The notes: generated by a model from the sequence alone, not told the origin. 64,000 bases of DNA from a bacterium (GCA_030704665.1 JAUYID010000009.1:662462-726461), one strand, 5' to 3'. Shown: positions 6,775-57,728, counted from the stretch's first letter. Made by a program: numbers and translations.

Positions 6775-7085
6775 GGTAGAAGAGCAAGACCACTGCTGCT
6801 TCTGTAGATCTGGACTTGTCTGATTGGTACAAAACCAAGTTTTTTCGCTGCTTTTGAGATTTTGGCGACTGAGCCCAAACTGCTGACCTGGTTTCCAAGT
6901 CTTTCATTTTCGCTTTTGAGCTCTTGGAGTTCTGTAGAATAGGCGGAAGCTAAACCCCCGGTCGTGGCCAGCTGATTGGAAACGAATATTTTTGCCAGTA
7001 ACAAGCCGACGACAAGAATTGCCAAAAACCAAACAGTTTTGGACAAAAAGGTATTTTCTTTTTTTCCTAGTTTTTGAGTTTCCAT
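6771..7085 (-). CDS. ftsL: Cell division protein FtsL-like (small bitopic membrane protein with a coiled coil)
   Basis: 104 aa with one TM helix followed by a heptad-like region. It lies between rsmH and ftsI, the canonical ftsL position. Confidence 0.5.
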   Translation of the reverse strand: METQKLGKKENTFLSKTVWFLAILVVGLLLAKIFVSNQLATTGGLASAYSTELQELKSENERLGNQVSSLGSVAKISKAAKKLGFVPIRQVQIYRSSSGLALLP

Positions 7086-7100
7086 GGGCAGGGTCCTCTT

Positions 7101-7964
7101 TTAAATTTTCTCGGCAACTCTCAGCTTTGCACTTCTGGCTCTCGGGTTTCTCTCTACCTCTTCTTCAGAAGGCAAAACCGGATTTTTGGTTATTATTTTC
7201 AAATTCTCTTGGTCCTGGAAAAATCTTTTGACAATTCGGTCCTCTAAGGAGTGGAAACTGATAACGAGCAATTTTCCACCCTTTTCCAAGACTTCCAAAC
7301 TTTCTCTCAGTCCTTCTTCCAGATTTTCTAGCTCGCTATTGACTGCAATTCTCAACGCCATGAAAACTTTGGTCGCCGGATGCAGTCTGCCCTTGCGGGC
7401 CCCGACAACACGGTTGATTATTTTAACTAGCTGATAACTCGTCTGGATTTTTTCTTCTCGACGGGCGTCGACAATAGCACGAGCAAGACGTCGCGCAGAG
7501 TGCTCCTCACCATACTTGTCAAATAGCTCATAAAGTTCCCTTTCTGCTAAAGCATTTATTAAATCTGCTGCACTGACTCCTAGGTTCGGATCCAACCTCA
7601 TGTCTAGCGGTGCATCTAGATTGAAGCTCAAGCCCAAACTAGGATCAGAAAGTTGATCGCTTGATATTCCTAAATCAAAAAGTACTCCTGAAACTGAAGT
7701 AATCCCTTTTTCTCTCAGGATTTCGCCTATTCTGCTAAAATTTTTGTTAATGATCGTCAACCCTGCCAGTGCCTCCTCTTCCAGTTTTTCCACTGTCTTT
7801 GGATCCACTTCGAAACCAATTACCTGACCACCCTGCTTAATTATTTCCTTAGCGTGTCCAGCCGCTCCCAGGGTCGCATCTACGTACAGATGACCTTTTT
7901 TAACGTTCAGAAAATCCAAAACTTCCTTCAGAAGTACGCTTTGGTGCTGCCAAGGATTTCTCAT
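7101..7964 (-). CDS. rsmH: 16S rRNA (cytosine1402-N4)-methyltransferase
   Basis: 287 aa. DATLGAAGH and SFHSLEDR motifs of MraW/RsmH. Confidence 0.9.
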   Translation of the reverse strand: MRNPWQHQSVLLKEVLDFLNVKKGHLYVDATLGAAGHAKEIIKQGGQVIGFEVDPKTVEKLEEEALAGLTIINKNFSRIGEILREKGITSVSGVLFDLGISSDQLSDPSLGLSFNLDAPLDMRLDPNLGVSAADLINALAERELYELFDKYGEEHSARRLARAIVDARREEKIQTSYQLVKIINRVVGARKGRLHPATKVFMALRIAVNSELENLEEGLRESLEVLEKGGKLLVISFHSLEDRIVKRFFQDQENLKIITKNPVLPSEEEVERNPRARSAKLRVAEKI

Positions 7965-8392
7965 ATTCCCGAATCTCTTAGTCTTTCCGCGAGGGCTTCA
8001 CCACCAGCTCGAAGTTTGGCCTCCATCTTTTTCCATTTGTTCTTGTCCCAAACTTCAATTCTTTCTAAAACCCCGATAACAATTGCTTCTTTTTTTAAAG
8101 CCGCGTACTTTCTCAAATATTCTGGCAAACTGATCCTACCTAATTTATCAAAATCAACTTCGACTGCCCCGGCAAAAAGGTAGCGACTAAAGGCTCTGGC
8201 GTCGGCTTGAGTCAGAGGCAAAGCAACCATTTTTTTGGCCAGTTCTTCCCAAGAATTTCTCGAGTACAAAAAAAGGCAACCGTCGAGACCACGAGTCAAG
8301 ACTGGTTCCCTGCCAAGAGCCTCTCTAAATTTTTTAGGTACGCTTACCCGCCCTTTATAATCAATACTGTGTTCGTATTCTCCGACAAACAT
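7961..8392 (-). CDS. mraZ: Transcriptional regulator MraZ
   Basis: 143 aa with a duplicated MraZ fold (MFVGEYEHSIDYKGRVSVPKKFR). It is the first gene of the dcw run. Confidence 0.85.
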   Translation of the reverse strand: MFVGEYEHSIDYKGRVSVPKKFREALGREPVLTRGLDGCLFLYSRNSWEELAKKMVALPLTQADARAFSRYLFAGAVEVDFDKLGRISLPEYLRKYAALKKEAIVIGVLERIEVWDKNKWKKMEAKLRAGGEALAERLRDSGI

Positions 8393-8689: not shown

Positions 8690-9349
8690 ATGAAAAATCT
8701 TTTTGAGACTGAAGAAAAAATATTTACTGGCTTTCTGACGCTGAAGGGAACTGCTTGGGAATGCCTCACTTCTCTGGAAACCTATATTGACTCTCTGTTT
8801 GAGAATCCTCCTGAAGGTTTAAATCTGCAAAATAATCTACTCCTTGGAGAAAATGTTAAGCTCGGTAACAACGTCGTTGTTCTCGGTAAAGCCATCCTCT
8901 GTGCTGGTACCGAAGTTTGCGACAACGCAGTTCTACGCGACGGGGTCATTCTAGGACAAAACTCTTTTATTGGTTTTGGTATTGAGATAAAGCATTGCGT
9001 AATAATGAGCAGGACACGAATTCCTCACCTCAACTACGTGGCTGACAGTATCATTGGTAATGGCTGCAATTTTGGGGCTGGAGTCATCACCGCCAACTGG
9101 AAGGGTGGCTTTGCCAACAAAGAAATAGCAGTAAGCTTGGACGAAGAAAGGTTTGACACTGGTTTAGAAAAATTTGGTGCTCTTGTTGGCGACGGGGTTT
9201 ATTTAGGTTGCAACGCTGTTTTGGATCCCGGAGCAGTCATTGGTAAAGGGAGTCTCATCTACCCCTTGAGTTTGATTCGTGGCGAAGTGCCTGTCAAGAC
9301 AATTGTAAAAAACCACCAAAATCTAGAAATGGTGGCAAAGGCAGAATGA
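8690..9349 (+). CDS. Left-handed beta-helix (hexapeptide) acetyltransferase, GlmU C-terminal-domain-like
   Basis: 219 aa of hexapeptide repeats. The stretch HLNYVADSIIGNGCNFGAGVITANWKGG ... FGALVGDGVYLGCNAVLDPGAVIGKGSLI follows the GlmU acetyltransferase pattern (HL.Y.GD..IG...N.GAG.IT.N..G ... IGD.VF.G). Confidence 0.55.
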   Translation: MKNLFETEEKIFTGFLTLKGTAWECLTSLETYIDSLFENPPEGLNLQNNLLLGENVKLGNNVVVLGKAILCAGTEVCDNAVLRDGVILGQNSFIGFGIEIKHCVIMSRTRIPHLNYVADSIIGNGCNFGAGVITANWKGGFANKEIAVSLDEERFDTGLEKFGALVGDGVYLGCNAVLDPGAVIGKGSLIYPLSLIRGEVPVKTIVKNHQNLEMVAKAE

Positions 9350-10485
9350 ATCTCTACGAATTTGAGGGTCTCCAACTTTTTGATAAAGCTGAAATCCCAA
9401 CTCCAAAAAGAGTTTTAGTTAACTCCACTGAAGAATTAAACAAAGTGGACTTTCCTGGTCCTTACGTCGCCAAGGCTCAAGTCCTTTCCGGAAAAAGAGG
9501 TAAATCTGGACTAATCAAAATTTTAGACAACCTGGACGAGAAAGAAATCGCCAGACTTTTGGCTTCTTCAAATGGTCGCGTTTTGATTGAAGAAAAATTA
9601 GTTGCCGAAAAAGAGTATTACTTGTCAATCACCTACAGCACAAAGCGGCGCCAACCAGTCATTCTTTTTTCTGAAGCGGGTGGGGTCGATATCGAAGCGG
9701 TTAAAAATGTTCAAGAGTTTCCGGTTGATTTAACCCTAGACTTTAGTTTTAAAAAACTTGACCCCGAAGTTAACACTATAGTAGAGAAGCTCTGGAAAGT
9801 TTTTACGCAGAACGATGCTCGCTTGGCTGAAATCAACCCACTTTTTAAGACCAAAGCTGGTCTAGTGGCGGTTGATGCCAAAGTAATTTTGGATGATGAC
9901 GCCCTTTCCCGCCATGAGGATCTCAGCTTTGAGCCGCGTGATGTCATCGGCAAAAAACCAACCGAGGAAGAACTAGCTGCAGCTGAAATCGACAAAGAAG
10001 ACCACCGCGGCTCGGCGGGTAGTAGCTACATGCAGCTAGAGGGAAACATAGGAATCATTGCTGCTGGTGGAGGCGGTTCTCTAGTCAATATGGACGCTCT
10101 GGTCGCTCTAGGAGGCGAGCCGGCTAACTACACTGAGCATTCGGGCAATCCACCGAGAGAAAAGATTGAGAAACTAACTAAGGTTGTTCTGGGAAAAACT
10201 GGGTTAATCGGTTGTTGGCTAGTTGGGGCGACTGCCAACTTCACTGATATGTATGAAACTCTCTCCGGCTTTGTGGATGGGTTACGAGCAATTAAACCGA
10301 AACCTGATTATCCGATTGTAATAAGGCGAGGTGGTCCACGCTGGGAAGAGGCGAAAGCCATGCTTGAAAAAGTTAAACAAGAGGAAGGTTTTGATCTTCA
10401 TATTTTTGGACCAGAAACACCAATGACCTCAACTGCCAAAACCATGGTTGAACTGGCCAACAAATACAAGGAAAATAAGCAGTGA
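9346..10485 (+). CDS. sucC: Succinyl-CoA synthetase beta-subunit-like (ATP-grasp; SucC/AclB/CcsA family)
   Basis: 379 aa. MNLYEFEGLQLF N-terminus and a C-terminal EGNIGIIAAGGGGSLVNMDALVALGGEPANY CoA-ligase domain. Confidence 0.75.
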   Translation: MNLYEFEGLQLFDKAEIPTPKRVLVNSTEELNKVDFPGPYVAKAQVLSGKRGKSGLIKILDNLDEKEIARLLASSNGRVLIEEKLVAEKEYYLSITYSTKRRQPVILFSEAGGVDIEAVKNVQEFPVDLTLDFSFKKLDPEVNTIVEKLWKVFTQNDARLAEINPLFKTKAGLVAVDAKVILDDDALSRHEDLSFEPRDVIGKKPTEEELAAAEIDKEDHRGSAGSSYMQLEGNIGIIAAGGGGSLVNMDALVALGGEPANYTEHSGNPPREKIEKLTKVVLGKTGLIGCWLVGATANFTDMYETLSGFVDGLRAIKPKPDYPIVIRRGGPRWEEAKAMLEKVKQEEGFDLHIFGPETPMTSTAKTMVELANKYKENKQ

Positions 10486-10925
10486 TTAAGGGAATCATTT
10501 TTGACTTTGGTTACACTATCTACGACCCCGACAAACAAAGTCTTCTACCCGAAGTCCTAGCCTTACTTGAAAAACTTAAAGGTAAATTCAAGCTTGCTTT
10601 GATAAGTCGAACTGCAGATCCTGAAAAGCGGCTCCAACAAATTGAAGAGCTTGGGTTAAACAAGTGGTTTGAGGCAGTTGCCGTGACACCGAAGGGAGAA
10701 AACAAGGATTTGGAACAATTTTTGGAAAAACTAAAGCTGTCTCCAGAAGAAACTCTAGTGGTTGGGGATCGAGTCGACAGTGAAATACGCCAAGGCAATT
10801 TACTCGGTATGCAAACTGCGCATTTTAATTATGGTCCAAGACAAGAAATCAAACCTCAGAGTGAGGCGGAAAAAGCTAAGTTTGAAATTAACAATTTGGC
10901 AGAAATTGAAAATTTAATCTTATGA
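10482..10925 (+). CDS. HAD-superfamily hydrolase (small)
   Basis: 147 aa. N-terminal IIFDFGYTIYD (DxD-like motif I) and a distal VVGDRVDSEI (motif IV). Its reading frame overlaps both flanking genes by 4 nt. Confidence 0.55.
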   Translation: MIKGIIFDFGYTIYDPDKQSLLPEVLALLEKLKGKFKLALISRTADPEKRLQQIEELGLNKWFEAVAVTPKGENKDLEQFLEKLKLSPEETLVVGDRVDSEIRQGNLLGMQTAHFNYGPRQEIKPQSEAEKAKFEINNLAEIENLIL

Positions 10926-11818
10926 GCATTTTAATTGACAAAAAGACCAAAGTTCTCGTTCAAGGCATTACCGGCAAAGAAGGCTCAAGAGCGGCCGAAC
11001 AAATGCTTGCTTATGGTACTGAGGTGGTCGCCGGAGTAACTCCGGGCAAAGGCGGGCAAGAGGTTTTCGGTAAAGCCGTTTACAACAGCGTCAAAGAAGC
11101 TTTGGTCAAACATCCTGAGATCAACACTACCTCCATCGCTGTCCCCGGCGTCTTCGCCAAGGCAGCTATGCTTGAAGCAATTGAAAATAAAATTCCTCTC
11201 ATTCATGTCTTGACTGAACACGTTCCAATTCTTGATTCAGCAATTGCTTTCGCGAGGGCAAAAAAAGCGGGGGTAAGAATTGTGGGTCCCAGTTCAATTG
11301 GCATCATCTCACCTGGAGAAGCCAAACTCGGTAGTATTGGTGGCTCGGATCCAAATTTTTCCTACCAATCCGGAGAAATAGGTGTTATTTCCAAATCTGG
11401 GGGCATGACCAGCGAAATCTCTTTCATTTTGAAAAAAACCGGTCTTGGCGTCTCCACTGCCGTGGGAATTGGGGGAGACATGATTATTGGCTCGACTTTT
11501 GCTGATCTGGCCGGAATTTTTAAAGACGATCCAAAAACCAAAGCTTTGGTAATTTACGGTGAGCAGGGTGGGACCTATGAAGAAGACTTGGCCGAGTATT
11601 TGCTCAAATCTAAATTTGAAAAACCGGTCGTGGCTTTCATCGCCGGAATTTTTGCTGAAAGTTTGCCGGCCGGCCAAGCACTGGGACACGCCGGAGCACT
11701 CATTGAATCCGGCAAGGGTAGAAGAATCGACAAAGTCAAAGCTCTTGAGAAAGCCGGAGTTGGAGTTGCAGCTGTTCCGGATGAGCTGCCCAAAGTCTTG
11801 CAAGAAAGGTTAAAATAA
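10922..11818 (+). CDS. sucD: Succinyl-CoA synthetase alpha-subunit-like (SucD/AclA-N/CcsB family)
   Basis: 298 aa. MSILIDKKTKVLVQGITGKEGS is near-identical in pattern to SucD N-termini, and the phosphohistidine loop GHAGAL is present. Confidence 0.8.
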   Translation: MSILIDKKTKVLVQGITGKEGSRAAEQMLAYGTEVVAGVTPGKGGQEVFGKAVYNSVKEALVKHPEINTTSIAVPGVFAKAAMLEAIENKIPLIHVLTEHVPILDSAIAFARAKKAGVRIVGPSSIGIISPGEAKLGSIGGSDPNFSYQSGEIGVISKSGGMTSEISFILKKTGLGVSTAVGIGGDMIIGSTFADLAGIFKDDPKTKALVIYGEQGGTYEEDLAEYLLKSKFEKPVVAFIAGIFAESLPAGQALGHAGALIESGKGRRIDKVKALEKAGVGVAAVPDELPKVLQERLK

Positions 11819-17419: not shown

Positions 17420-18508
17420 TCATAAGTATTCAGTTTTGTTTCTTTTCTTGATTTCAGCGACAACCTTCTTGACATCCTGACTACGGTCTTTGGGACAGAT
17501 CAGTAGTGCGTCTGGGGTGTCTACCACAATCATTCCTTCTAGACCAATAGTCGCGATAAGCTTGCCTTCCTTCGAACCAAAAATGAGACAATCTTTAGTA
17601 TCAATATCAATGTGCTGACCTTTAACAACGTTGGCCGACCCACCCAAACTGGCTAGCTCATCCTTGAGAACATTCCAAGCCCCAACATCAGTCCAACCCA
17701 AATCTGCCTCAATCTCAATCTGGTCCTCACTACTGAGTTTTTCAAAAAGTGCGTAGTCAATCGCCTCTCGAGGAATTTTTTGGTATTCTTGCTCAACTAC
17801 TTTTTCTTCCCGACTGGTTCCGACTGCTTCTTGGATCTTTATCAAGGCAGCATAAACCTCGGGAGTGTGCTTTTGGAAAAGAGCCATGATTTTGTCTAGC
17901 TCCCAAACAAAATAACCGGTATTCCAAAGAAAATTCCCCTGTTTTAAAAACTTTTCTGCTGCTTCGTAGTTTGGTTTTTCGACATGTCGGGAAAATTGCC
18001 AAATGTCGAAGCCTTCCAAATTCTCAATCTTTTTGCCGATTTCGATATAACCTAAATGAACACTGGGAAAACTCGGGCGCACATCAACTTTGACGATAAC
18101 ATTTCTCTCTTTAGCTAGTTTTTCAGCTAGCTTCAAAGCTTTGACAAAAGTCGGCGTATTTTTGACCAAATGATCGGCTCCCCAGACCGCGGCCATGGTT
18201 TCACCAGGGAATTTTTTGGCTAAATAGGAAGCCGCAAAACCAACGGCGGCAAGATTGTCGCGCATTTCCGGCTCTCCCAAAATGTTCTCTGGTTTTAAAT
18301 GCGGCGCCTGTTCGGCAACAGTTTCGAGATAATCCTTACCGGTCAAAACAAAAACATCCTCTGGGTCGAAACCGGTCAGGATACGCTTGACCATCGCTTG
18401 AAAAAGCGACTCATCGTCGATCAATTTTTGAAATTGTTTGGGAAGAGCCTGGCGGCTCAGCGGCCACATTCGCGTCCCGGCTCCACCCGAAAAAATTACA
18501 ATCTTCAA
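17420..18508 (-). CDS. manC: Mannose-1-phosphate guanylyltransferase-like nucleotidyltransferase
   Basis: 362 aa. The SGGAGTRMWPLSR signature of the GMP / mannose-1-P guanylyltransferase family. Confidence 0.7.
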   Translation of the reverse strand: MKIVIFSGGAGTRMWPLSRQALPKQFQKLIDDESLFQAMVKRILTGFDPEDVFVLTGKDYLETVAEQAPHLKPENILGEPEMRDNLAAVGFAASYLAKKFPGETMAAVWGADHLVKNTPTFVKALKLAEKLAKERNVIVKVDVRPSFPSVHLGYIEIGKKIENLEGFDIWQFSRHVEKPNYEAAEKFLKQGNFLWNTGYFVWELDKIMALFQKHTPEVYAALIKIQEAVGTSREEKVVEQEYQKIPREAIDYALFEKLSSEDQIEIEADLGWTDVGAWNVLKDELASLGGSANVVKGQHIDIDTKDCLIFGSKEGKLIATIGLEGMIVVDTPDALLICPKDRSQDVKKVVAEIKKRNKTEYL

Positions 18509-18633: not shown

Positions 18634-19812
18634 TCAGAGTGACGTCTTTGATCTTTTTGCTTGCAGAGCCTCTTTGACAAAGAGCTTCATTTTTTCTTTA
18701 AATCTTTCTTTAGAAAATTTTTCTGCTTGCTTCTTTGCTTCTTGAGGATCAAATTCCATTTTTTCGAATTTTCTAACTGCCTCTATTATAGACTCTTCTG
18801 TCTGCTCTGAGAAAAAAACTCCGGTTTTTCCTTCGACAATTGTTTCGAGAGCCCCACCTTTTCCAAAAGCGATGACAGCTTTGCCCGCGGCTTGGGCTTC
18901 GACTGGGACAATCCCAAAGTCTTCCTCAGTTGGAAAAATCAAGGCTCGACAGTCTTTCATGTAAGCCGCTACTTGGCTATCAGCTAGCCTTCCCAAAAAC
19001 TCAATGTTGGGCTCGGCCATTGCTTTTAGAGTTGTCAGAGCTGGGCCGTCACCAATTATTTTTAGTGGATAACCGAGTTTGTTGAAAGCTTTGACGGCAA
19101 TATCAATTTTTTTATAGCCCCCAAGACGGGAAACAATGAGATAGAAAAATTTATTTGGCCTTGATACTTGATCTTTGATACTGGGTACGCTGGCAAAGCG
19201 AGCTGTCTCTACTGGGGGGTAAAGCACCGTCGCCGGGACACCATATTTATCTTTAATTCGTTTTTTGATTTCTTCAGAATTGGCGATGACAAAATCGATT
19301 TTTTTCATCGCTGCCCGATCTGCCAAGCGCAAAAGGTTTTTAACAACCGGGACAGTAAGTCGGTAGATTGGCTCCAAGTATTTATCAAAACCGCGGTGTC
19401 GGTAGCCGGTCAGTTCTTGATCGTAGCCGTAGAGGAATCTCGGTGGAGTGTTGATATAGGCAATGTGAAACCCACCTTTTTTTGCTCGAGCAAATTTGGC
19501 GGCGTAGGAGGAGACACTGATCACAATATCTGCGTCGGTCTTCTGCAACCGAAAGGCCAGGGGATAAAGAAAGAAGTAGTGTTTGTTTAAATAATGAGCA
19601 AAAGGAAGTTTTTGTATTAAATTAGTGTGAATTCGACTCGGATCAATTTTTAGCCAAGAATCCATCAACTTTTTATCATAAATAGAAGTGTAGATCTGGG
19701 CTTCCGGCCAGATTTCTGCTAAGGCTCCAACGACCCGTTCTCCTCCACCATACTGGTTGAGAAAGTCGTTGACAATTGCCACACTTGGTTGCTTGCTAAA
19801 CATAGGTTCCAA
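18634..19812 (-). CDS. Glycosyltransferase, GT4 family
   Basis: 392 aa. GT-B fold with a C-terminal E..7..E-type region (FPTEEDFGIVPVEAQAAGKAVIA). Confidence 0.7.
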   Translation of the reverse strand: MEPMFSKQPSVAIVNDFLNQYGGGERVVGALAEIWPEAQIYTSIYDKKLMDSWLKIDPSRIHTNLIQKLPFAHYLNKHYFFLYPLAFRLQKTDADIVISVSSYAAKFARAKKGGFHIAYINTPPRFLYGYDQELTGYRHRGFDKYLEPIYRLTVPVVKNLLRLADRAAMKKIDFVIANSEEIKKRIKDKYGVPATVLYPPVETARFASVPSIKDQVSRPNKFFYLIVSRLGGYKKIDIAVKAFNKLGYPLKIIGDGPALTTLKAMAEPNIEFLGRLADSQVAAYMKDCRALIFPTEEDFGIVPVEAQAAGKAVIAFGKGGALETIVEGKTGVFFSEQTEESIIEAVRKFEKMEFDPQEAKKQAEKFSKERFKEKMKLFVKEALQAKRSKTSL

Positions 19813-19977: not shown

Positions 19978-21165
19978 ATGAAACTAAAACTTGCCATCTT
20001 TTCTTTTGTTTTTATCCTCCTTTCCCTGGCCCAAATCAACAAAATAACCACTCGGGAATTTGTTTTGGACGAATACATTTGGATACCTGCGGGAATAACT
20101 TTCGTTGACAAACTTTCTCATGGTGAGTTTGAAAAAACCAACCTCTCCACCCGCCCAGGAGTAACCGTTGAAATAGTTACTGGAACAACTACAACCTTGG
20201 TGCGCAGGCTCAATAATCAAAAAGATCTTTTTACCACACAGATTAGCGAGAATGAAATTTTTGTAAATCGAGTAGTCATCGGGCTGATACTTGCTCTTCT
20301 TGCCAGCTTGTCTTTCTTCCCTTTATCTATTTTATTGGGTCAACGCAACGCAGCCCTAGGTACTCTTTTACTAGGTCTAAACCCGTTGTTAATACGCCTT
20401 CAGGCTGCTTGGACCGATCTTTTTTTAGCTTTGTTTTTGGTTTTAAGTTTATTTTGTTACTTGGTGTTTTGGGAAAAGAAAAACAAGAGTTTTCTCTTTC
20501 TTTCTGCCCTAGCCTTTGGTCTTGCCCTTGCTTCAAAAGCTTTCGCCATCATTCTAATACCAAGTCTAGCCCTTTCTTCGATCTGGTTTAACTTCAACAA
20601 AGAAAACGTTAAAAACGCTTTGCGCTCAGTCTTTGTAGTTTTCGCAGGCGGTTTAGCAATCGTTTACCTTATTTACCCTTTCCTTTGGGTCAAACCGTTT
20701 GGACTTTTTTTTCGTTATCCAGAGCTGACCAACAATTTTTCAACCAGTGTGACAGATCAATACTTTGGATCTTTTAGTGTCTTTTTCTACCCCTACAATC
20801 TTTTTCTCTATGATTTCTTTTTAGCCGTTTTGGTTTCTCTTTTATTGCTACCAACAATTCTTCACTTGGTCCGAAAGCGAAGTTGGCCAAACATAATCCA
20901 ATTTCCGGTTCTGTTCTTCCTTCTAAACCTGGTGGCTTTATTGATAGTGTCACAAGCGAAGTACCTCACTCACAACACCGGCCAAAATATTGCGGGTTAT
21001 CGCTATTTTGCCCCAGCCGTTTTCTCGCTGATCTTGTTTCTAGTGGCATCAAGCGCTTTCGTTGCTGAAAAAGTGAATTTTTGGGGAAGAAAATCTTCTG
21101 TTCCAAAAATCTTTCCCTTTTTAGTACTGGGCTATTACCTTTTCGAATTTTTCTTTTGGAGATAG
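19978..21165 (+). CDS. Polytopic membrane protein, possibly a GT-C-type (ArnT/PMT-like) glycosyltransferase
   Basis: 395 aa with more than 10 predicted TM helices. The call rests on general architecture only. Confidence 0.35.
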   Translation: MKLKLAIFSFVFILLSLAQINKITTREFVLDEYIWIPAGITFVDKLSHGEFEKTNLSTRPGVTVEIVTGTTTTLVRRLNNQKDLFTTQISENEIFVNRVVIGLILALLASLSFFPLSILLGQRNAALGTLLLGLNPLLIRLQAAWTDLFLALFLVLSLFCYLVFWEKKNKSFLFLSALAFGLALASKAFAIILIPSLALSSIWFNFNKENVKNALRSVFVVFAGGLAIVYLIYPFLWVKPFGLFFRYPELTNNFSTSVTDQYFGSFSVFFYPYNLFLYDFFLAVLVSLLLLPTILHLVRKRSWPNIIQFPVLFFLLNLVALLIVSQAKYLTHNTGQNIAGYRYFAPAVFSLILFLVASSAFVAEKVNFWGRKSSVPKIFPFLVLGYYLFEFFFWR

Positions 21166-21253
21166 AGTGAAGAATAATTTAGTTCAGAGGGTTCGACGAG
21201 AAAGAGTGCGTTCTTCCTCGTCGGTGTCTATGCAATCACTAACGCACTAGGTG

Positions 21254-21526
21254 CTAGAACATGATTTTCGCCGAGTTGTCAAAGCCCCAATCTTCAACAA
21301 AGAAGTTGGCCCAGATCACTGTTCCAACAATCATGAGGATGGTGAGGGCTACTGGTATCAGCTCCCATTTTCTCCTCTGTGTATCAGTTGTCAAACTGAA
21401 AACGGCCAGCACCATGGTGGCCGCAGCCAGGTCAAAGACTGGCTTGTTCACCCCAAAGCTCGCGGCGAAGACGACCATCGCCAGGATGAAAACCCAGGTG
21501 AAGCGTTCGCGGATCCAAGTCATCTC
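21254..21526 (-). CDS. Small membrane protein (2 TM) in the GC-rich islet
   Basis: Longest ORF is 21254..21634. I trimmed it to the internal Met (MTWIRERFTW...) because the upstream gene ends at 21550. Confidence 0.35.
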   Translation of the reverse strand, partial: EMTWIRERFTWVFILAMVVFAASFGVNKPVFDLAAATMVLAVFSLTTDTQRRKWELIPVALTILMIVGTVIWANFFVEDWGFDNSAKIMF

Positions 21527-21549
21527 ACTACTCCTTTCGACTTGCGCCG

Positions 21550-21945
21550 TTACGCAAATCTCTCGATGATGATCTTGACTGGCACCGCCAGCAGAAGCAG
21601 CAAGGCACTCAGACCACCACCGCTGTGGATCCAAAAGTCGCGCCGGTTGGCACGACCGTTGAACTCAACACCTTCTTCGGTGATCAGGTAGGTCTTGTCG
21701 ACCACCTCGATCCTGATCCACTCGATCAACTTGAACCACAACACGGCACTGACTACCGCTGCGGGCAAGAAGACTAGCGGGTGGATTCCCAAAACCCACA
21801 CCAGCAGAGGTGGCAGTACCGGCAGTAGCAGCGGTACTCCAATCTTCTTGTAGAAAGGCGTGTGGTCCTTGCCACAAATCAAGTCGTGGGCGATTCTAGC
21901 CGACACGAACTCGAGTCCGGGATGACTTTCCCTTGCCTGAGCCAC
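21550..21945 (-). CDS. Hypothetical membrane protein in the GC-rich islet (GTG start; AAGGAGGA immediately upstream)
   Basis: 131 aa: a proline-rich TM segment followed by a soluble region. Start codon is uncertain. Confidence 0.35.
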   Translation of the reverse strand: MAQARESHPGLEFVSARIAHDLICGKDHTPFYKKIGVPLLLPVLPPLLVWVLGIHPLVFLPAAVVSAVLWFKLIEWIRIEVVDKTYLITEEGVEFNGRANRRDFWIHSGGGLSALLLLLAVPVKIIIERFA

Positions 21946-21978
21946 GACTCCTCCTTCCGGCTTTCGCCAGCTTCCCGA

Positions 21979-22407
21979 TCAGGCACTGACAGGTGATTTC
22001 TTCTGCGCCACCACCAAAACACCCAAACGCATCAGATTGATTCCTGCCACCCTAACCGCACCAACATCGGCAAGATCATCTCGCGAGTCGGACTTGATGA
22101 AAAGGGTCAACCAAAAACCCGGACCAAGTTGCAACAAGAATTCTGCGTCAGGAAGATATCCTCGGATGTCCGTCAGATGAAACCTCACGTTTTCCCTGAG
22201 AAGATCCTCTACCCTCCCAAGACGATCGAGTTCCTGCTCGTCAGTCGTTGCCTCCTTGGCGGCAGCCAACACTATAGCCACTGCCTTGTCAGCTCCATCT
22301 TCATCACTGAAGAAAGCGTGATCCACAACTACCTCCTTGGCATTTGCCTGTTTCTTCCGGTTAGAGCAATTATACTTCTCGTCAGCAAATGAAGGTGTAT
22401 AATCCAA
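21979..22407 (-). CDS. Hypothetical protein in the GC-rich islet
   Basis: 142-aa ORF with no recognisable motif. Other-frame ORFs overlap it. Confidence 0.25.
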   Translation of the reverse strand: MDYTPSFADEKYNCSNRKKQANAKEVVVDHAFFSDEDGADKAVAIVLAAAKEATTDEQELDRLGRVEDLLRENVRFHLTDIRGYLPDAEFLLQLGPGFWLTLFIKSDSRDDLADVGAVRVAGINLMRLGVLVVAQKKSPVSA

Positions 22408-22455
22408 ATCAGCAACACGAAACGAGAGAGCCGAAAGGCTAGAAGGAGATTACCC

Positions 22456-22761
22456 ATGCTCGATGACAAGGTAGGTGAGACCTTTGCCTTTGACCTGGAC
22501 TGTACTCGCGATTGGTATCCAGTCGGAGATATAACCGAGGATGAAGCATGGAATTTAGCCAACTCCGCTGCTCCTCATAGCCAGTGGAATGATGAGGAGA
22601 TCACCGCCTTCATCGGCTACCAATACGCTACTGGCAAACGGGATTGGCCTGAGGAAATTGCTCTGGTTGTCACGGTCGATGAGCAGTTTGCCCATGCAGT
22701 CGTGCGCTGGGAAGGCAACTACTACCGTCTGCGACGGAAAGTTGAACCAGTGGCTGTATAA
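22456..22761 (+). CDS. Hypothetical protein in the GC-rich islet
   Basis: 101 aa. Canonical SD AAGGAGAT 5 nt before the ATG, and protein-like composition. Confidence 0.45.
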   Translation: MLDDKVGETFAFDLDCTRDWYPVGDITEDEAWNLANSAAPHSQWNDEEITAFIGYQYATGKRDWPEEIALVVTVDEQFAHAVVRWEGNYYRLRRKVEPVAV

Positions 22762-22963
22762 CAAGGAGAAGACGATGCCAACTGCACAAGAGTCAGCCTA
22801 CAGAGAACGTCTCAAGAACAGCTGGTGTGCGGTTGCGGCAGCACTGACTACACACAGGTCTGCGACCGTGGCAAGCCCAAGAACGGCCCGCCAGGGCTCT
22901 ACTGTCAATCCTGTTTCGAGGAGGCTGACGAGGATTAGCCAAAAGGCTGGAGGAGAGTTTTCC

Positions 22964-23383
22964 ATGGAAACTTTGCGGTTCCCGGACGATTATGACAGAA
23001 TGAGCCTTTGGCTCGCGACCACACCCGATGGCAGACGGATTGTTGAGGGGAAATTGGAAGAGTTCCCCAATCTCTTCTCCGAACAGTTCGATCAAGGACT
23101 TCGGGAGTTGGGATTCGACAGCGCCAATCTGCTGCGGGTCAAAGAATTAGCCTTGGATTGGCATAGGCAAGGTAGTTCTCAACGCGGACGGCTTTCCAGA
23201 ATCGATGTGGCCCTACTGCGAGCAGTCGAGCAGCAGTTGAGCATGTCTTTGGTGAGCCCACCACTAAAAGTCCGTCTTGAGAAACTCTCAAAGGAACTGC
23301 GACAAAACTCGCGCAAACGGCGTGGCCAGCGGACCGAGAGTCTGCGGGGTGCTGGTAACATCGTCATCGGACCCGGTTGTTAG
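22964..23383 (+). CDS. Hypothetical protein in the GC-rich islet
   Basis: 139 aa (METLRFPDDYDRMSLW...). GGAGGAGAG SD upstream. It is the protein-like 3' part of the 264-aa track ORF. Confidence 0.4.
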   Translation: METLRFPDDYDRMSLWLATTPDGRRIVEGKLEEFPNLFSEQFDQGLRELGFDSANLLRVKELALDWHRQGSSQRGRLSRIDVALLRAVEQQLSMSLVSPPLKVRLEKLSKELRQNSRKRRGQRTESLRGAGNIVIGPGC

Positions 23384-23557
23384 GAGGTGATCCGTGGCAG
23401 GTAACGCAACGGAACGACTACAAATTCGATACCGCAACGGCCGAGCGGTAAAACGCCCGCCTTGGGAAGAAGATCGAGGTGGAATGGTTGTGGTACCAGT
23501 TCACTCACCACTGCCGGTGTCGCAGATACCAAAAGGGCGGGAGTAGAGGAGAAGGTC

Positions 23558-23701
23558 ATGACACGCAAGCGAGGGCGCAAACAGCGCAAGCCCAAGCTTA
23601 CCGTTGAACAAGTCTGGTCCAGAATGGAGCGCTCGCTTGAGGAATGGGAGAAGAAATTACCCAAAGCCTCGGACAAGACGCTCCACATGGTTATCAACTG
23701 A
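23558..23701 (+). CDS. Small basic protein (47 aa) in the GC-rich islet
   Basis: MTRKRGRKQRKPKLTVEQVWSRMERSLEEWEKK... GGAGAAGG SD 6 nt upstream. Confidence 0.3.
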   Translation: MTRKRGRKQRKPKLTVEQVWSRMERSLEEWEKKLPKASDKTLHMVIN

Positions 23702-23729
23702 TAATCAACGGGGCGCAGGATCGACAACA

Positions 23730-23769
23730 CGAGCGACCAAAACTTTTTTGGCCGCTCGCTCCGTTTTTT
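23730..23769 (+). terminator. Intrinsic terminator at the right edge of the GC-rich islet
   Basis: CGAGCGACC-aaaactttttt-GGCCGCTCG stem (one mismatch), then CTCCGTTTTTT. Confidence 0.45.
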
Positions 23770-23787
23770 AGGACCTCTTCCCAAAAA

Positions 23788-24711
23788 ATGTATAATGAAA
23801 AGACTGTGCGGCTTTTTTCCTTTCTTCTCCTTAGTTTAATAGTCCTTTCCTTCCCAGGGAGTATCTTCGCCCACGGTTCTGGTCCCCCAATCCTGCTTAT
23901 GAATGGAAAGTATGCAAACAACAACCCTATCTTTACCTCGAGCACTACTGATATTCCCTTGGGAATGGATGTAGCACCGGAAAATTATTTAGTTAATACC
24001 CAGGTTAAGTTTTCCCTGACCCGCAAGAATTTGCCGGCTCCAAAAGAAGTCATCGATCGCTCTACTTTCGGCTGGAACTTTGCTGATGGCAGGCAGGGCA
24101 GCGGGTTAACCGTTTCTCATACCTTTACCAAACCAGGCACTTATATCGTCAAAATCACCGTCAAAGACCCGACTCAAAATACGGTTTTTGATCTCAATAC
24201 CGTGCAGCTGAATATTCTGCCCAACAAAGACTACTCCCTACCGCAAGCCAAGATAAAAATTAACGGTAAGCTGGTTGCAGACCCCCTCAAGGACACTTTC
24301 AAAGTCAAAAAAGGAGACGAAATTGAATTTGATGCGAGCCAATCTGTTGGCGATGGTTTGTCCTACCAATGGGACTTTGGTGATGGGGTGGCACAGAGAG
24401 GAAAGACTATAAAACATACCTACGCTGCCGACTTCTTCCCTAGTTTTCCACTGCTACGGGTCACTGACAAAAACGGCCTCTACAACGATACTTTTGCTGA
24501 GTTTTTTGGTCCTGAAGGTGGAGAAGGCTTTTTCCCAAACCCAGCCTACAAAGTCAATGATAGCAAAACTTCTTCTCCAACTGCTTCAGCAAACTCAAAA
24601 TCTAAAACTGACTTTCCTCTTTTACCTGCTCTGGGAATTGGAGGGGTAGTAGTATTTCTGACTCTAACTTTTTATTTGACCAAGCTTCGTCGCCAAGTGA
24701 AAAATAAGTAA
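23788..24711 (+). CDS. Secreted/cell-surface protein with two PKD-like domains and a C-terminal TM anchor
   Basis: Signal peptide MYNEKTVRLFSFLLLSLIVLSFPGSIFA. WNFADGRQG...HTFTKPGTYIVKITVKD and WDFGDGVAQRGKTIKHTY are classic PKD motifs. Hydrophobic C-terminus followed by KLRRQVKNK. Confidence 0.6.
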   Translation: MYNEKTVRLFSFLLLSLIVLSFPGSIFAHGSGPPILLMNGKYANNNPIFTSSTTDIPLGMDVAPENYLVNTQVKFSLTRKNLPAPKEVIDRSTFGWNFADGRQGSGLTVSHTFTKPGTYIVKITVKDPTQNTVFDLNTVQLNILPNKDYSLPQAKIKINGKLVADPLKDTFKVKKGDEIEFDASQSVGDGLSYQWDFGDGVAQRGKTIKHTYAADFFPSFPLLRVTDKNGLYNDTFAEFFGPEGGEGFFPNPAYKVNDSKTSSPTASANSKSKTDFPLLPALGIGGVVVFLTLTFYLTKLRRQVKNK

Positions 24712-24718
24712 TTTTGTT

Positions 24719-25861
24719 TTAACTCTTTTTTCCCACTTGGTTGTAAACCGCGAGTGTTTGCTCTGCCATTTTCCGCCAGGAAAACTGCCTGACTCTTTCT
24801 TGCCCAGCTTTGGTTAACCCTTCTCTGAGCTTTTTGTTCTCTGCAACTTCTTTTACTTTTTTCGCAAGCTCGGGGGGCTTGTGCGGATCGAAATAGACTG
24901 CCGCAGTAGCGTAAACTTCAGGTAAACTTGAAATTTTGGCCGCAATGACCGGACAGAGACAGGCCATTGCCTCCAAACCCGGAAGCCCAAAGCCCTCAGA
25001 GAGGGAGGGAAAAACAAAGGCGAGCGCCTCCTGAAAAAGAATGACGAGCTCTTCATTGGGAACAAAACCAACAAACTTGACCCGATCTTCCAAACCGAGA
25101 TCTTTAACTTCTTCCTGCACTTTTTCGGTAAAGCGGTTTCGGGCCCCGACGATGACCAGTTTAGTTTTGGGTTCAAGAAGGCGCAGAGCTTCGAAAATGA
25201 CCTGGATGTTTTTGTAAGGAAAAAGGTTTCCCACGTAAAGCAAGTACGGGTCTCTCACTCCGAAGCTCTCCAAAACTTTTTTCTTTTGCCCTTCAGCAAC
25301 TTTCTTTTCTCCAAGGGACAAGAAAATCTGGTCTGCGGCTTCGTAGGTCACTTCAATTTTTGAAGGCTTGACCCCAAAGCTAGCGGCAACTTTCTTTTTG
25401 ATAAATTCCGATGGAACTAGAATTTTGCTTGCCCGTTTCACGGCTTGGTTGGCGACAATCTTGTAACCAGCACTTTTGACAAAATAAATTGGTTTCATTC
25501 TTGTCGTTGCCGCACTACCACCAAACTCGTTGGTAGTCGTGTCATGAACTGTGACGACAAATTTTCCGCCCCAAAGCAAGGGTACGTTGAGGTGGGGGAA
25601 ATGAACCAAATCTGGCTTTTCGCGAGTAAGAACCGCCGGCACGACGACTTGCTCTTTGACCGAGTACCATTTGGCATCAGTGAGGACTTTTTTGAAATTG
25701 GAGCTCTCCGGGTTGAAAAGGGGGTAGTTGTTTTTGCGTAGGAGAACAACATACTCATTCTCTGTGTCAATTTTCACCAACTCGTTTAGTAGATTTTCAA
25801 CGTAACGGCCGATTCCGGTCCCTTCTGGACCAAAGAAACGCGCGTCAATGGCAATTTTCAT
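24719..25861 (-). CDS. Glycosyltransferase, GT4 family
   Basis: GT-B fold (EGFGLPGLEAMA). Start chosen at MKIAIDARF; the track ORF extends 7 codons further upstream. Confidence 0.7.
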   Translation of the reverse strand: MKIAIDARFFGPEGTGIGRYVENLLNELVKIDTENEYVVLLRKNNYPLFNPESSNFKKVLTDAKWYSVKEQVVVPAVLTREKPDLVHFPHLNVPLLWGGKFVVTVHDTTTNEFGGSAATTRMKPIYFVKSAGYKIVANQAVKRASKILVPSEFIKKKVAASFGVKPSKIEVTYEAADQIFLSLGEKKVAEGQKKKVLESFGVRDPYLLYVGNLFPYKNIQVIFEALRLLEPKTKLVIVGARNRFTEKVQEEVKDLGLEDRVKFVGFVPNEELVILFQEALAFVFPSLSEGFGLPGLEAMACLCPVIAAKISSLPEVYATAAVYFDPHKPPELAKKVKEVAENKKLREGLTKAGQERVRQFSWRKMAEQTLAVYNQVGKKS

Positions 25862-26010
25862 TTTGAAGTAACTAGCGAGCAAATATAAATTCGCTTCGCT
25901 CTTTGTAATTTACGATTCTAGATCTCTTCGCTCTCTGCGCTGCAAGCGTCTTCAACCGCGATCCAAATTCTTGGTTTCTTAAGCAAACACCCTTCCTGGT
26001 CGATACGATG

Positions 26011-52904: not shown

Positions 52905-54116
52905 TCAAAAACTTGGAGCAGAAAGGGTCGAGACTTCTGATTTTTGACCGGTACTTAAGTTAATAATTACAATAGTTTTTTCTCCTGTAAAACTACCGTC
53001 TGTCACACACTCACCTGAATTGCATTCTCTCAACTTTAAAGTAACCAAAATATTATCATTTACCCAAGCGGGAGTAGCTAAATGCTTCCCTAAACTTTTG
53101 TCTATCTTGCTGTTCAAATTAAATAGACCAACACTCGAATCGGAAGCTTCTGATTCATTAACGGCATAACCTTTGCTGTGAGCAAGGTTTTTACCGTCAG
53201 GGGAAACCGAAGGGCTAGACCAATCTTTTTCAGAACTGATTTTCTCGTCAGTCTTTGAAGCAAGGTCGTAAATATGCATTCCCTCAGAAATCTCCTTGTA
53301 AACAAAGCTAGTGTTTGATACCCAAACTGGCAAAGTCACGTCTCCCTTTATACTAGCTACCTTCGCTCCATTGGTGTCAAAGACTAATATTTTTTCATCA
53401 GTACTGTAGAAAGTGTCAACTATAAGGACCTTATTTGTGTCTGGAGAAAATTTGGCCGAAAAAGCATCGTCTTGTGAAGCTCCCCTACCAACAGAAGCCT
53501 TTTCATAAAGCACTTTGTCTTGATCGGTGGTTAAATCAAAAAGATGTACCGTCACTTTGTCGGAAAAATAGTTAAAAAGTAGTTTTTTATAATCTTTTGT
53601 GATGTCAGTTAGATAAATAGGCTTTTTAAATTTTTTATCTTGGCTAAGAGAAAATTTATTTCCCTTGAAAACCCCTTGCCAAAGCTCACTGCCACTGCCT
53701 TTCTCTTTAACAAAAACAAATGTCGTCTGGGTAAGGAAAGTAGGATTCCGATAAAGAAGGTCGTTTGATCCATCTTTGGTTATCTGAGTTTTCTTTTTAC
53801 TGACAACATCAAGTACCCAAATATTGTTCTTGTCCACAAAACCAACTTTTGTAATCGTCTCGCTCTGAGCGTCTTTGTCCTTTGAAGTTTGCTTTGAACT
53901 GGAAGAAGCTTGTTTGGTGGTATCAGTCTTCGGATTTTTGTTGCTGGTTTTATTCAGTACTAAGTAACCGCCTGCTCCTAAAAGCGCGACTATTACTAAA
54001 ACCCCGAGAGCCAAAAAAAGTTTGTTAATGCCTTTTGTTGGATTTGTTAAGTTTATTTCTTGTTTGGGAAATTCAGCGGGTTTCTGGTTGTCTACTGGGT
54101 TTGATTCATCGGGCAT
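52905..54116 (-). CDS. Membrane-anchored beta-propeller (TolB/PD40-like) protein
   Basis: Single N-terminal TM, a Ser/Thr/Lys-rich linker, then a beta-rich region with FSPDTNKVL / SVSPDGKNLAH PD40-like repeats. The first ATG is at 54116; the track ORF starts at a TTG at 54152. Confidence 0.4.
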   Translation of the reverse strand: MPDESNPVDNQKPAEFPKQEINLTNPTKGINKLFLALGVLVIVALLGAGGYLVLNKTSNKNPKTDTTKQASSSSKQTSKDKDAQSETITKVGFVDKNNIWVLDVVSKKKTQITKDGSNDLLYRNPTFLTQTTFVFVKEKGSGSELWQGVFKGNKFSLSQDKKFKKPIYLTDITKDYKKLLFNYFSDKVTVHLFDLTTDQDKVLYEKASVGRGASQDDAFSAKFSPDTNKVLIVDTFYSTDEKILVFDTNGAKVASIKGDVTLPVWVSNTSFVYKEISEGMHIYDLASKTDEKISSEKDWSSPSVSPDGKNLAHSKGYAVNESEASDSSVGLFNLNSKIDKSLGKHLATPAWVNDNILVTLKLRECNSGECVTDGSFTGEKTIVIINLSTGQKSEVSTLSAPSF

Positions 54117-54150
54117 TGTTCTAATTATAGGTTGCCGGAAATTGCTTGTC

Positions 54151-54178
54151 AAAAAAAGACCCCGCCTTGCAGCGGGGT
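54151..54178 (-). terminator. Intrinsic-terminator-like hairpin read on the minus strand (ACCCCGC-tgcaag-GCGGGGT, then T7)
   Basis: 7-bp GC-rich stem with a 6-nt loop and a U-run on the minus strand. It abuts the alternative TTG start (54152) and lies 35 bp upstream of the first ATG (54116) of the minus-strand gene. Confidence 0.4.
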
Positions 54179-57045: not shown

Positions 57046-57050
57046 AACGC
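56982..57050 (+). repeat. Direct repeat copy 1 (DR1): the native secA 3' end, encoding ...KYKKCGLVNSPTHQENMAKA*
   Basis: Template for two downstream degenerate copies. See DR2 and DR3. Confidence 0.7.
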
Positions 57051-57191
57051 CATTAATTTCTCTAAATTATAGGACTAAAAATTAGACTGTTTATAACTTA
57101 TGACGTCCACAAGGAGTCTCAAGACTCTTACTCGTTTATCAAATAGTATCCCAGTCCATCAAAGCTTAATACCAACTAGCTAACAGCCTAC

Positions 57192-57235
57192 TTGACAGCG
57201 AATTGTTGTTTGTTAATATACTTATATATTAAGTA
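57192..57235 (+). promoter_or_regulatory. Sigma70-like promoter (TTGACA-16 bp-TAATAT) overlapping an inverted repeat ATACTTA-tatat-TAAGTAT. Probable MarR autoregulatory operator.
   Basis: Consensus -35 at 57192-57197 and -10 at 57214-57219. 7-bp perfect arms at 57217-57223 / 57229-57235, 17 bp upstream of the marR-family ATG. Confidence 0.55.
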
Positions 57236-57251
57236 TCTAACATAACTTCGT

Positions 57252-57695
57252 ATGTCGACAAGAGACCAACTCATTGAAGAAATTCTGCATAGCCTCCACG
57301 CTATTCGTAATCATATTAAGGCAAAGGCTGTTCATTTGGGGCATCAAAATCATATTACCCACTCCCAATGGTTTATTTTGAAAACTATCGAACACTATAA
57401 AAGCGTAAGTATCAAAGATATAGCGGAAACACTAGGGATGTCTTCAAGTGCTGCAACTCAGCTTGTGGACGGTCTTGTGCAAGCGGGTTTTGTGATAAGA
57501 CAAGAAAACCCCAATGACCGCCGATTGGTACGGTTGGAGCTTTCGCCAAAAGGCAAGAGGCATATCGCTGCTACGAAAGAAAATCGCATAACCGAAATGG
57601 CACAAGTTTTTGACGCATTGAACGATAAGGAACTTGCGGGATACCTGAAATTGCAGAAGAAAATTCTATCAAAATTTTTGCACAAAAAATCTTAA
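57252..57695 (+). CDS. MarR-family transcriptional regulator
   Basis: 147 aa with a winged-HTH region (VSIKDIAETLGMSSSAATQLVDGLVQAGFVIRQENPNDRRLVRLELSPKG). Confidence 0.8.
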   Translation: MSTRDQLIEEILHSLHAIRNHIKAKAVHLGHQNHITHSQWFILKTIEHYKSVSIKDIAETLGMSSSAATQLVDGLVQAGFVIRQENPNDRRLVRLELSPKGKRHIAATKENRITEMAQVFDALNDKELAGYLKLQKKILSKFLHKKS

Positions 57696-57728
57696 CTCAA
57701 ATAAAACAATGCGATTACTAGGACTAAA

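Follow-up and report, generated by a model that had tools for sequence, protein, structure and literature searches.

The window analysed here is a 64,000-nucleotide stretch of a bacterial metagenome-assembled genome (MAG; GCA_030704665.1, JAUYID010000009.1, positions 662462-726461), taken from a 938,369-bp contig. At 21.2-23.77 kb it contains an islet of about 2.6 kb, with three small genes on the minus strand and five on the plus strand, lying in an intergenic gap of a surface-glycan locus. On balance, this islet is probably a genuine, horizontally acquired and self-contained module with two arms. It differs from its host in GC content, in GC content at third codon positions (GC3), in tetranucleotide usage, in the use of Shine-Dalgarno (SD) sequences and in the style of its leaders, in which a mini-hairpin abuts the SD. 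The lead gene of its right arm, P101, recurs in a similar GC-rich islet of another genome, which indicates that the islet is acquired DNA and not an artefact. Horizontal acquisition had been proposed in an initial annotation of the window, and is supported by these compositional and leader differences together with the recurrence of P101. What is new is a small uncharacterised P101 family and a hairpin-SD signature, which join islets of different genomes.

Compositional contrast between islet and host

Measured over 200-nt windows, GC content is 0.37-0.44 up to position 21299 (0.39-0.41 for 21000-21299), 0.53-0.585 for 21300-23599 and 0.43-0.47 past 23700. When the window is cut into 1-kb bins, the three islet bins (0.511-0.516) are at the top of all 64. 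GC3 is 0.45-0.74 for the islet genes versus 0.42 ± 0.05 for 51 host genes, and the tetranucleotide distance of the islet (0.40; median 0.19, standard deviation 0.044) makes it the strongest outlier in the window. Thus, the description of a GC-rich islet in an AT-rich glycan locus is confirmed by all three measures, and GC, GC3 and oligonucleotides lie off host values, as expected of a genomic island. The islet shows no self-similarity to the rest of the window.

A check of GC skew and of codon usage (through GC3), of the kind suggested with the initial annotation, gave a result in the same direction: islet GC3 is off the host range, and the skew is negative across 21400-22400 and positive across 22400-23600. 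The sign switches at about 22400, the divergence point of the arms, a pattern that minus-strand reading of the left half and plus-strand reading of the right half would produce.

An SD core of at least 5 nt precedes six of the eight islet starts (seven with ATG 22775) versus 8 of 51 host genes, which bears out the earlier remark that native genes mostly lack an SD. All the SDs quoted at that time were found (AAGGAGAT before 22456, GGAGGAGAG before 22964, AGGAGGTGA before 23394 and GGAGAAGG before 23558), and an additional one, AAGGAGAAG, lies ahead of 22775. SD-led open reading frames (ORFs) account for 812 aa of the 2.58 kb; 500 dinucleotide-preserving shuffles averaged 145 aa and never exceeded 616 aa.

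The P101 family and a second islet

P101 is the only islet gene with detected homologues, and its family is tiny, with four other members. A full HMMER scan of 1.84 billion representative sequences returned the homologues P0001 (57%) and P0002 (42%), and a profile search then added the self-entry of P101 and P0006 (71%). E-values within the family run from 3.5e-36 to 8e-13 with phmmer and from about 1e-39 to 1e-51 with the profile. Two long repeat proteins in the HMMER list were rejected as spurious. Over about 100 aa, the family has 28 invariant positions, five tryptophans among them, and a signature composed of invariant W20, AW31-32, AP39-40, QW43-44, WPE64-66 and WEG85-87. The ratio of nonsynonymous to synonymous substitution (dN/dS) is 0.17-0.30 with saturated synonymous sites, indicating that P101 is a real protein under purifying selection whose copies diverged long ago. 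From a four-sequence alignment, AlphaFold2 (AF2) predicted a beta-alpha-alpha-beta3 layout, with a predicted local distance difference test score (pLDDT) of 72 for the best model and 49-55 for the others. This predicted fold has no structural neighbour in the PDB or BFVD, and a metagenome scan with the P101 alignment found nothing. The earlier statement that no islet protein has a recognisable family therefore stands for curated libraries, but not for P101, which has four uncharacterised homologues.

P0006 lies on L016 (GCA_964357925.1), an 8.9-kb contig on which a neighbouring gene is at least 90% identical to proteins of Candidatus Woykebacteria MAGs. An islet of about 1.1 kb (7100-8216) is found there, with a GC content of 0.51-0.56 in a 0.33-0.39 background. 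P0006 heads this islet, ahead of an unrelated gene for a 222-aa protein and a terminator, and the whole stands between lysC and a small membrane-protein gene. Nucleotide homology between the window and L016 (75% over 309 bp) starts exactly at the leader hairpin (22429 in the window, 7104 in L016) and covers P101 only. The same DNA is present in independent Hainich groundwater assemblies (well H41): L017, 100% identical to L016, spans the left junction (6845-7724), and L036, 99.9% identical, spans the interior (7429-8179). In L035, a related strain at 86% identity, DNA in common with L016 is found only from 5 nt past the islet terminator. The lead gene thus occupies non-syntenic sites in genomes of GC 0.36 and 0.43, with its own GC close to 0.52 in each. 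With its leader, it is also present on two short metagenome contigs. The loci of family members beyond the window are denoted L014, L015 and L016 below; the partner genes are entirely different in L015 and L016.

Several other features of these loci were observed. An AT-rich block of about 80 nt (AATTACC..ATTATACGCTGCAA..GCAAACAAATTGCAA..GTTGCTTAATTA..GAAAAGTAA), upstream of the family gene, is nearly identical in L015 (668-760) and L016 (7003-7075), with an alignment score of 80 versus a maximum of 29 for shuffles. It is better conserved than the P101-family proteins of these two loci (each 40-71% identical to P101), has no match in IMG/VR, and may be a regulatory or recombination element. 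In L014, P0001 is accompanied by a TTATAAT box, a leader hairpin and a terminator, all between 23-nt direct repeats (TTTYCCYTCCCTCAAAAAGCAAAT, at 288-310 and 756-778; 91% identical, 468 nt apart). Possible readings of this repeat are a duplicated target site, a scar left at an att site and a promoter present twice. On L016, the homoserine-dehydrogenase gene (1485-2780) has a GC content of 0.55-0.58 within a lysC-dapB-dapA-asd-hom operon at 0.33-0.42 and forms a second compositionally foreign piece on that contig, here a housekeeping gene. The DUF2958 gene of the same contig (497-805) has 23 copies at least 90% identical across NCBI, JGI, ENA and Logan contigs, Candidatus Woykebacteria MAGs included, and is unusually widespread for a small gene.

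The hairpin-SD leader

A mini-hairpin of 3-6 bp abuts the SD of five window genes (P89, P131, P115, P101 and P139) and of no host gene. Beyond the window, the same leader precedes three gene starts on L015 (one of them divergent), two on L016 and one on L014. Its loop is mostly GAAA, with AAAA, TAAA, AAAT and GCAA as variants. In two cases, P139 and one gene on L015, the TAG stop of the upstream gene is built into the leader stem; for P139, this is the stop of the Zn-ribbon gene described below.

In an alignment of ten leaders, 88% of the stem cells are paired and in seven both sides have changed, and none of 500 shuffles matched this. Sliding the alignment out of register lowered the pairing to 2-48%. 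A covariance model built from these leaders scored nine of the ten at 21.7-29.1 bits and the tenth, that of P115, at 14.8 bits; across 288 kb (the host window and 17 other loci), the best other match reached 17.1 bits. The 12-mer AGCCGAAAGGCT, with at most one mismatch, occurs twice in the 64 kb, both times inside the islet. Searching IMG/VR with the hairpin-SD pattern gave 17 isolated matches on unrelated contigs, approximately the number expected by chance, and tblastx on these was empty.

Genes of the two arms

Table 1. Features of the islet and its flanks, in window coordinates (aa, amino acids; pI, isoelectric point; bits, covariance-model score).
Feature	Coordinates	Strand	Evidence and remarks
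GT39/PMT_2 membrane glycosyltransferase gene, intact	19978-21165		left neighbour of islet, convergent; MDP2671593.1
Left-edge hairpin	21205..21234	-	20 nt downstream of P89 stop; 12-bp stem with G-U pairs
P89, 89-aa membrane protein, about three hydrophobic segments	21254..21523	-	ORF, SD AAGGAG, hydropathy; MDP2671594.1
P89 leader	21524..21549	-	CGGC-GCAA-GTCG then GAAAGGAG; 22.4 bits
P131, 131-aa membrane protein, GTG start	21550..21945	-	ORF, hydropathy; MDP2671595.1
P131 leader	21946..21970	-	CTGGC-GAAA-GCCGG then AAGGAGGAG; 27.3 bits
P115, 115-aa acidic protein (pI 4.7), GTG start	21979..22326	-	SD AAGGAGG; MDP2671596.1
P115 leader	within 22327..22455	-	GGC-AAAT-GCC and AAGGAGG; 14.8 bits
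Divergent control region between arms	22327..22455	.	read from sequence
P101 leader	22429-22448	+	AGCC-GAAA-GGCT and AGAAGGAG
P101, 101-aa acidic Trp-rich alpha/beta protein	22456..22761	+	right-arm lead gene; MDP2671597.1
Zn-ribbon-like small gene, disrupted	22775..22938	+	ATG 22775, SD AAGGAGAAG; translations
P139 leader	22935..22963	+	TTAGCC-AAAA-GGCTGG overlapping SD GGAGGAGAG; 26.8 bits
P139, 139-aa basic protein (pI 9.9), mostly helical, Arg/Lys-rich C-terminal tail	22964..23383	+	
P50, 50-aa basic ORF, GTG start	23394..23546	+	9-nt SD AGGAGGTGA
P47, 47-aa very basic ORF (pI 10.7, N-terminal MTRKRGRKQRKPK)	23558..23701	+	SD GGAGAAGG; last right-arm gene
Intrinsic terminator, right arm	23708..23769	+	composite hairpin 23708-23763 then U6
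PKD-domain protein gene, host	ATG 23788		right neighbour of islet

The left arm opens with P115, whose SD lies 5 nt ahead of GTG 22326, and ends with P89. A 142-aa ORF with a TTG start had been drawn earlier in place of P115. This longer form is without SD and absent from NCBI, where the exact 115-aa product is present, and its true start is most likely GTG 22326. Three minus-strand genes, two of them for membrane proteins, had been announced, and hydropathy analysis confirmed this, with about three transmembrane (TM) helices in P89 and two or three in P131. P131 is laid out as two adjacent TM helices, a soluble stretch of about 30 aa and a hydrophobic C-terminus. Neither P89 nor P131 has a family match in Pfam, PHROGs, PADLOC or NCBIfam. 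A reading of P131 as a bPH-domain protein is unsupported by Pfam and was dropped.

In the right arm, the gene following P101 is disrupted. The frame opened by ATG 22775 runs for 17 codons, after which a surplus TG at 22826-22827 (within TGGTGTGC) shifts the reading frame. The Cys-rich Zn-ribbon part, CGCGSTDYTQVCDRGKPKNGPPGLYCQSCFEEADED, is encoded in the -1 frame (22825-22938), which closes with TAG 22936-22938. GC content at codon positions 1, 2 and 3 of this frame is 0.58, 0.50 and 0.74, resembling other islet genes; the in-frame alternative past the 17 codons has a second-position GC of 0.74 and is rich in Ala, Arg, Ser and Thr. As judged from its frames, the gene could be a pseudogene, the product of an assembly indel, or a 37-aa gene started at GTG; the frameshift hints at decay. 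Programmed frameshifting was rejected, as no slippery heptamer is found at 22815-22830 and the TG duplication accounts for the shift. An alternative genetic code was also dropped, since every gene ends at a standard stop with a sensible length. The original count of eight small genes holds for three on the minus and five on the plus strand, but not for the integrity of the second plus-strand gene.

The NCBI pipeline independently called five islet genes (locus tags of the region Q8P13_04035-04055). One call is a 202-aa fusion at 22775-23383 (MDP2671598.1), which is probably wrong and covers the frameshifted Zn-ribbon gene and a separate 139-aa gene, because P139 has a hairpin-SD leader of its own, whose stem includes the Zn-ribbon stop. 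P89, P131, P115, P101 and the 202-aa fusion are all singletons at 90% clustering. No family, PDB or phage match was found for P139, and its single-sequence AF2 model (pLDDT 49) was discarded. P50 (GC3 0.45) and P47, whose exact products are absent from the protein collection, are the less certain genes of the islet. The public annotation would accordingly be corrected by splitting the fusion and by adding these two small ORFs.

Edges and control region

Both edges of the islet fall in short gaps, of 89 nt and 18 nt, beside intact host genes. The hairpin noted earlier at the left edge is real: it folds on the minus strand at -24.7 kcal/mol (z = -3.2), one of 200 shuffles being as good, and is without a U-tract. 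It may serve both the islet and the convergent GT39 gene of the host, as a boundary structure or a transcript end. The intrinsic terminator claimed at the right edge also proved real, in the form of a composite hairpin with an inner stem GAGCGaCCAAAA/UUUUGGcCGCUC and an outer stem CGGGGC/GCUCCG (fold z = -2.4). It ends 18 nt ahead of the start codon of the PKD-protein gene, and a simple consensus terminator scan did not list it.

Between the arms, two back-to-back -10 boxes, ATTATAC (22369-22375) and GTATAAT (22397-22403), form an inverted repeat with a distance of 21 nt and are putative promoters for both arms. No tRNA was found in the 64 kb, and none of 4227 Rfam families matched at gathering score anywhere in the window. 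Around 21.2 and 23.77 kb, a search for flanking repeats, direct or inverted, gave none that convinced, and no target duplication is present. The test for an insertion sequence (IS), transposon or miniature inverted-repeat transposable element (MITE) gave no terminal inverted- or direct-repeat pair at these positions and no transposase domain.

Proposed organisation and origin

In the organisation that we propose, two back-to-back promoters would drive the arms. The left arm would deliver an acidic soluble protein, P115, and then the small membrane proteins P131 and P89; the right arm would comprise P101, the broken Zn-ribbon gene, P139, P50, P47 and the terminator. The mini-hairpin placed against a strong SD would make initiation SD-dependent at most cistrons, and probably protects or delimits the mRNA. 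The right arm probably belongs to a recurrent cassette type, with a leader hairpin and SD, a P101-family gene, variable small genes and a terminator. This type would circulate in a GC-richer mobile gene pool of groundwater ultra-small bacteria, and would also have seeded the Woykebacteria-like islet of L016. With no mobility genes on board, the islet probably owes its fixation to recombination functions of the host acting on imported DNA, unless it is the remnant of a larger or decayed element.

Regarding function, it is possible but doubtful that the islet acts as a 'moron' of phage or plasmid type and takes part in genetic conflict, either at the envelope or against nucleic acids. The suggestion comes from its protein set, in which two small membrane proteins stand beside small proteins that are acidic or very basic, a mix typical of the accessory genes of phages or plasmids. 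It is distinctly improbable that the hairpin and SD serve as the recombination boundaries of an undescribed gene-cassette system of bacteria of the candidate phyla radiation (CPR), or of their phages or plasmids. This idea arises from the homology that starts at the hairpin, the stop codons within the motif and the L014 unit between its direct repeats. If it were true, the P101-family lead gene and the terminator would frame exchangeable orphan genes, and entire units would move from genome to genome with no recombinase of their own encoded in cis; the leaders would then be functional analogues of the PeSLs of T4-like phages.

Alternative explanations

The initial annotation had suggested a phage or plasmid remnant, a toxin-antitoxin system or a defence islet, and none of these origins found a match in PHROGs, PADLOC, Pfam, NCBIfam, phage records, plasmids (P101) or IMG/VR. 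A decayed prophage or integrative plasmid of a CPR bacterium, of which an early or immunity-type region was left after deletion of the structural and integration genes, is unlikely. The tightly packed small orphan genes, the strong SDs, the divergent promoters and the terminators at both ends agree with such a remnant, and the one frameshifted gene suggests decay; genomic islands and prophages are also reported to be common in Patescibacteria (PMC12455944). However, PHROGs returned nothing at E <= 0.01 (best E = 0.04), and tblastn against 50,697 phage records (INPHARED) found nothing for P101, P139, P131, P115 or the 222-aa protein of L016. The same was true of P101 in a tblastn search of 72,556 plasmids and of blastn against phages and plasmids. 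IMG/VR protein scans were empty or at chance level and gave no relative of the family. At the locus itself, there is no integrase, att site or tRNA, the flanking host genes are intact and no further foreign DNA is seen. No integrase or other mobility gene is present among the annotated neighbours, although not every window ORF was scanned for a tyrosine recombinase.

We regard it as quite unlikely that the islet is a toxin-antitoxin, abortive-infection or defence islet, and equally so that it follows the specific scheme in which P115 neutralises P131 and P89 as membrane-damaging effectors while the right arm supplies regulators. Such a system would fit loosely with the small genes and with a divergent, autoregulation-like promoter region containing an inverted repeat. 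The gene order, with two small membrane proteins after an acidic soluble one, and the position within a variable surface-glycan locus agree with it equally loosely. Yet PADLOC gave nothing at E <= 0.01 (the best E, 0.022, concerned a short stretch), and the islet proteins have no match in Pfam or NCBIfam, hence no toxin, antitoxin, helix-turn-helix (HTH) or transposase domain. Moreover, P101 is the only conserved gene and has wholly different partner genes in L015 and L016, whereas a co-adapted pair would be expected to stay together. Sequence searches of the PDB were empty or insignificant.

Native, lineage-specific genes, whose GC content and strong SDs would result from selection (for example on expression) and not from transfer, are very improbable. 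The five collected islet proteins are indeed singletons, and no mobility signatures are present. Against this, a shift of 0.1-0.3 is seen in GC3, on which the protein sequence imposes little constraint; the lead gene is non-syntenic in two genomes of lower GC and keeps its own composition in both; and the leader motif does not occur in the remaining 61 kb of the window. An assembly chimera or a contaminant fragment joined into the contig is extremely improbable. The composition switch is abrupt and the host has no close relative at hand with which it could be compared, but a chimera would need two false joins, exactly in the two short gaps of one locus. In addition, the contig is 938 kb long, the exact proteins also occur in a Logan run-level assembly, and a like islet with a homologous lead gene is present in another genome in three independent assemblies (L016, L017 and L036).

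Several points weigh against horizontal acquisition of a defined module, or limit how far it can be taken. Both islet junctions were judged from assembled sequence alone, and no att site, tRNA or recombinase was found at the islet. The phage, plasmid and IMG/VR collections yielded no donor, and scans with the flanks gave no empty-site sister strain: relatives of the flanking GT4 gene in the genome collection were at most 44% identical, from assorted phyla and without synteny, and the GT39-flank scan of metagenomes found nothing. Contig look-ups by exact window product returned no record. Valid searching of the large protein databases covers P101 alone among the eight proteins. Indeed, concatenated-protein queries against a 5.8-billion-protein set missed the identical entry present in that database; their negatives are therefore void and are no evidence for orphan status of the other seven.

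The link between loci has weaknesses as well. The window terminator resembles L016 8148-8225 marginally, with a local alignment matched by 6 of 1000 shuffles, and the promoter region of the window is not significantly similar to those of L015 or L016. The leaders used for covariation were chosen by eye at gene starts; the covariation is therefore supportive but partly by construction, and is not independent. The L014 leader, which has a 3-nt loop and was outside the training set, was missed by the covariance model. Finally, a role in conflict was deduced purely from the mix of proteins.

Comparison with known systems

Stem-loops that stabilise mRNA at the 5' end include the E. coli ompA leader hairpin and the Bacillus STAB-SD of cryIIIA. 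Like these, the islet has a stable hairpin directly 5' of a strong SD, with a covarying stem. Unlike them, the islet hairpin is repeated before internal cistrons, sometimes with the preceding stop inside.

Integron attC sites are 57-141 nt long. The intergenic gaps of the islet are 10-25 nt, so attC sites cannot be present, and neither IntI nor attI was found near the islet, among the annotated neighbours. The right arm nevertheless resembles integron arrays in its one-directional small orphan genes, its variable content and its conserved head. In contrast to those arrays, SDs are provided gene by gene in the islet, and a promoter region and a terminator belong to the arm itself.

Phage morons are autonomous units of promoter, gene and terminator placed between other genes, as defined for prophages. 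The L014 gene, alone with its TTATAAT box, leader and terminator, is organised in this way, and the right arm of the window, closed by a terminator of its own, would be a longer version. There is, however, no prophage at the islet.

PeSLs consist of an early promoter and a terminator-like stem-loop, and were defined in T4-like phage genomes. In hyperplastic regions of those genomes, PeSLs flank cassettes of orphan genes (PMC2839356, PMC4122927). The islet likewise has a stem-loop before small orphan genes, and the homology between the window and L016 starts at the element while the neighbours differ, as recombination at a boundary would produce. In contrast with PeSLs, the islet element is a hairpin with an SD and lies in no phage genome; the resemblance is an analogy only, and recombination at the motif is putative.

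Genomic islands and prophages have been reported to be common in Patescibacteria (PMC12455944, mSystems 2025), and the kind of element is therefore already known. Like those islands, the islet is atypical DNA rich in hypothetical genes, at a variable locus of a small AT-rich genome. It differs from them in its size of 2.6 kb, in having no integrase, tRNA or repeat boundary and in containing small orphan genes only. It was also recognised through a common lead gene and a leader motif, and not by island-prediction software.

Host locus and other observations in the window

The polysaccharide locus around the islet extends from about 16.7 to at least 39.4 kb and encodes a priming sugar transferase, ManC, several GT4 glycosyltransferases, Wzy, a flippase, epimerases and dehydratases. 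The rest of the window includes housekeeping genes, such as those for Mur ligases, PBP2, ProRS, RecO and SecA. The host is probably a Patescibacteria/CPR-type organism, with which its small genome would agree.

Beside the islet, a TGTATAAT box (23789-23796) overlaps the start codon of the PKD-protein gene. Initiation at GTG 23806 would give a leaderless mRNA opening with a signal peptide (MRLFSFLLL...); neither this start variant nor that from ATG 23788 is present in the protein collection. Four host genes (18634-19812, 17420-18508, 24719-25882 and 52905-54152) have apparent TTG starts without SD. Start-site choice may be unusual in this organism, or these ORF starts may have been miscalled.

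Next to the islet, the segment that deviates most in tetranucleotide usage (57046-57728) follows SecA and contains the gene for a 147-aa MarR-family regulator (57252-57695; Pfam E = 1.5e-18), an ordinary host gene by appearance. At 9346-11818, two genes with ATP-grasp_2 plus Citrate_bind and CoA_binding plus Ligase_CoA domains form a pair resembling ATP-citrate lyase or citryl-CoA synthetase, which would be unexpected if the genome is that of a reduced CPR bacterium.

Significance

Taken alone, the islet is an ordinary phenomenon, namely the presence of a short piece of foreign DNA in a streamlined genome, at a variable surface-glycan locus. It is also a clean case of foreign genes that bring their own initiation style, a strong SD with a 5' hairpin, into a host mostly devoid of SDs, which raises the question of how, or whether, the islet genes are expressed. 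The mobile elements of CPR bacteria are poorly known, and the P101 family together with the hairpin-SD leader provides a searchable signature for the hidden mobile gene pool of groundwater CPR bacteria.

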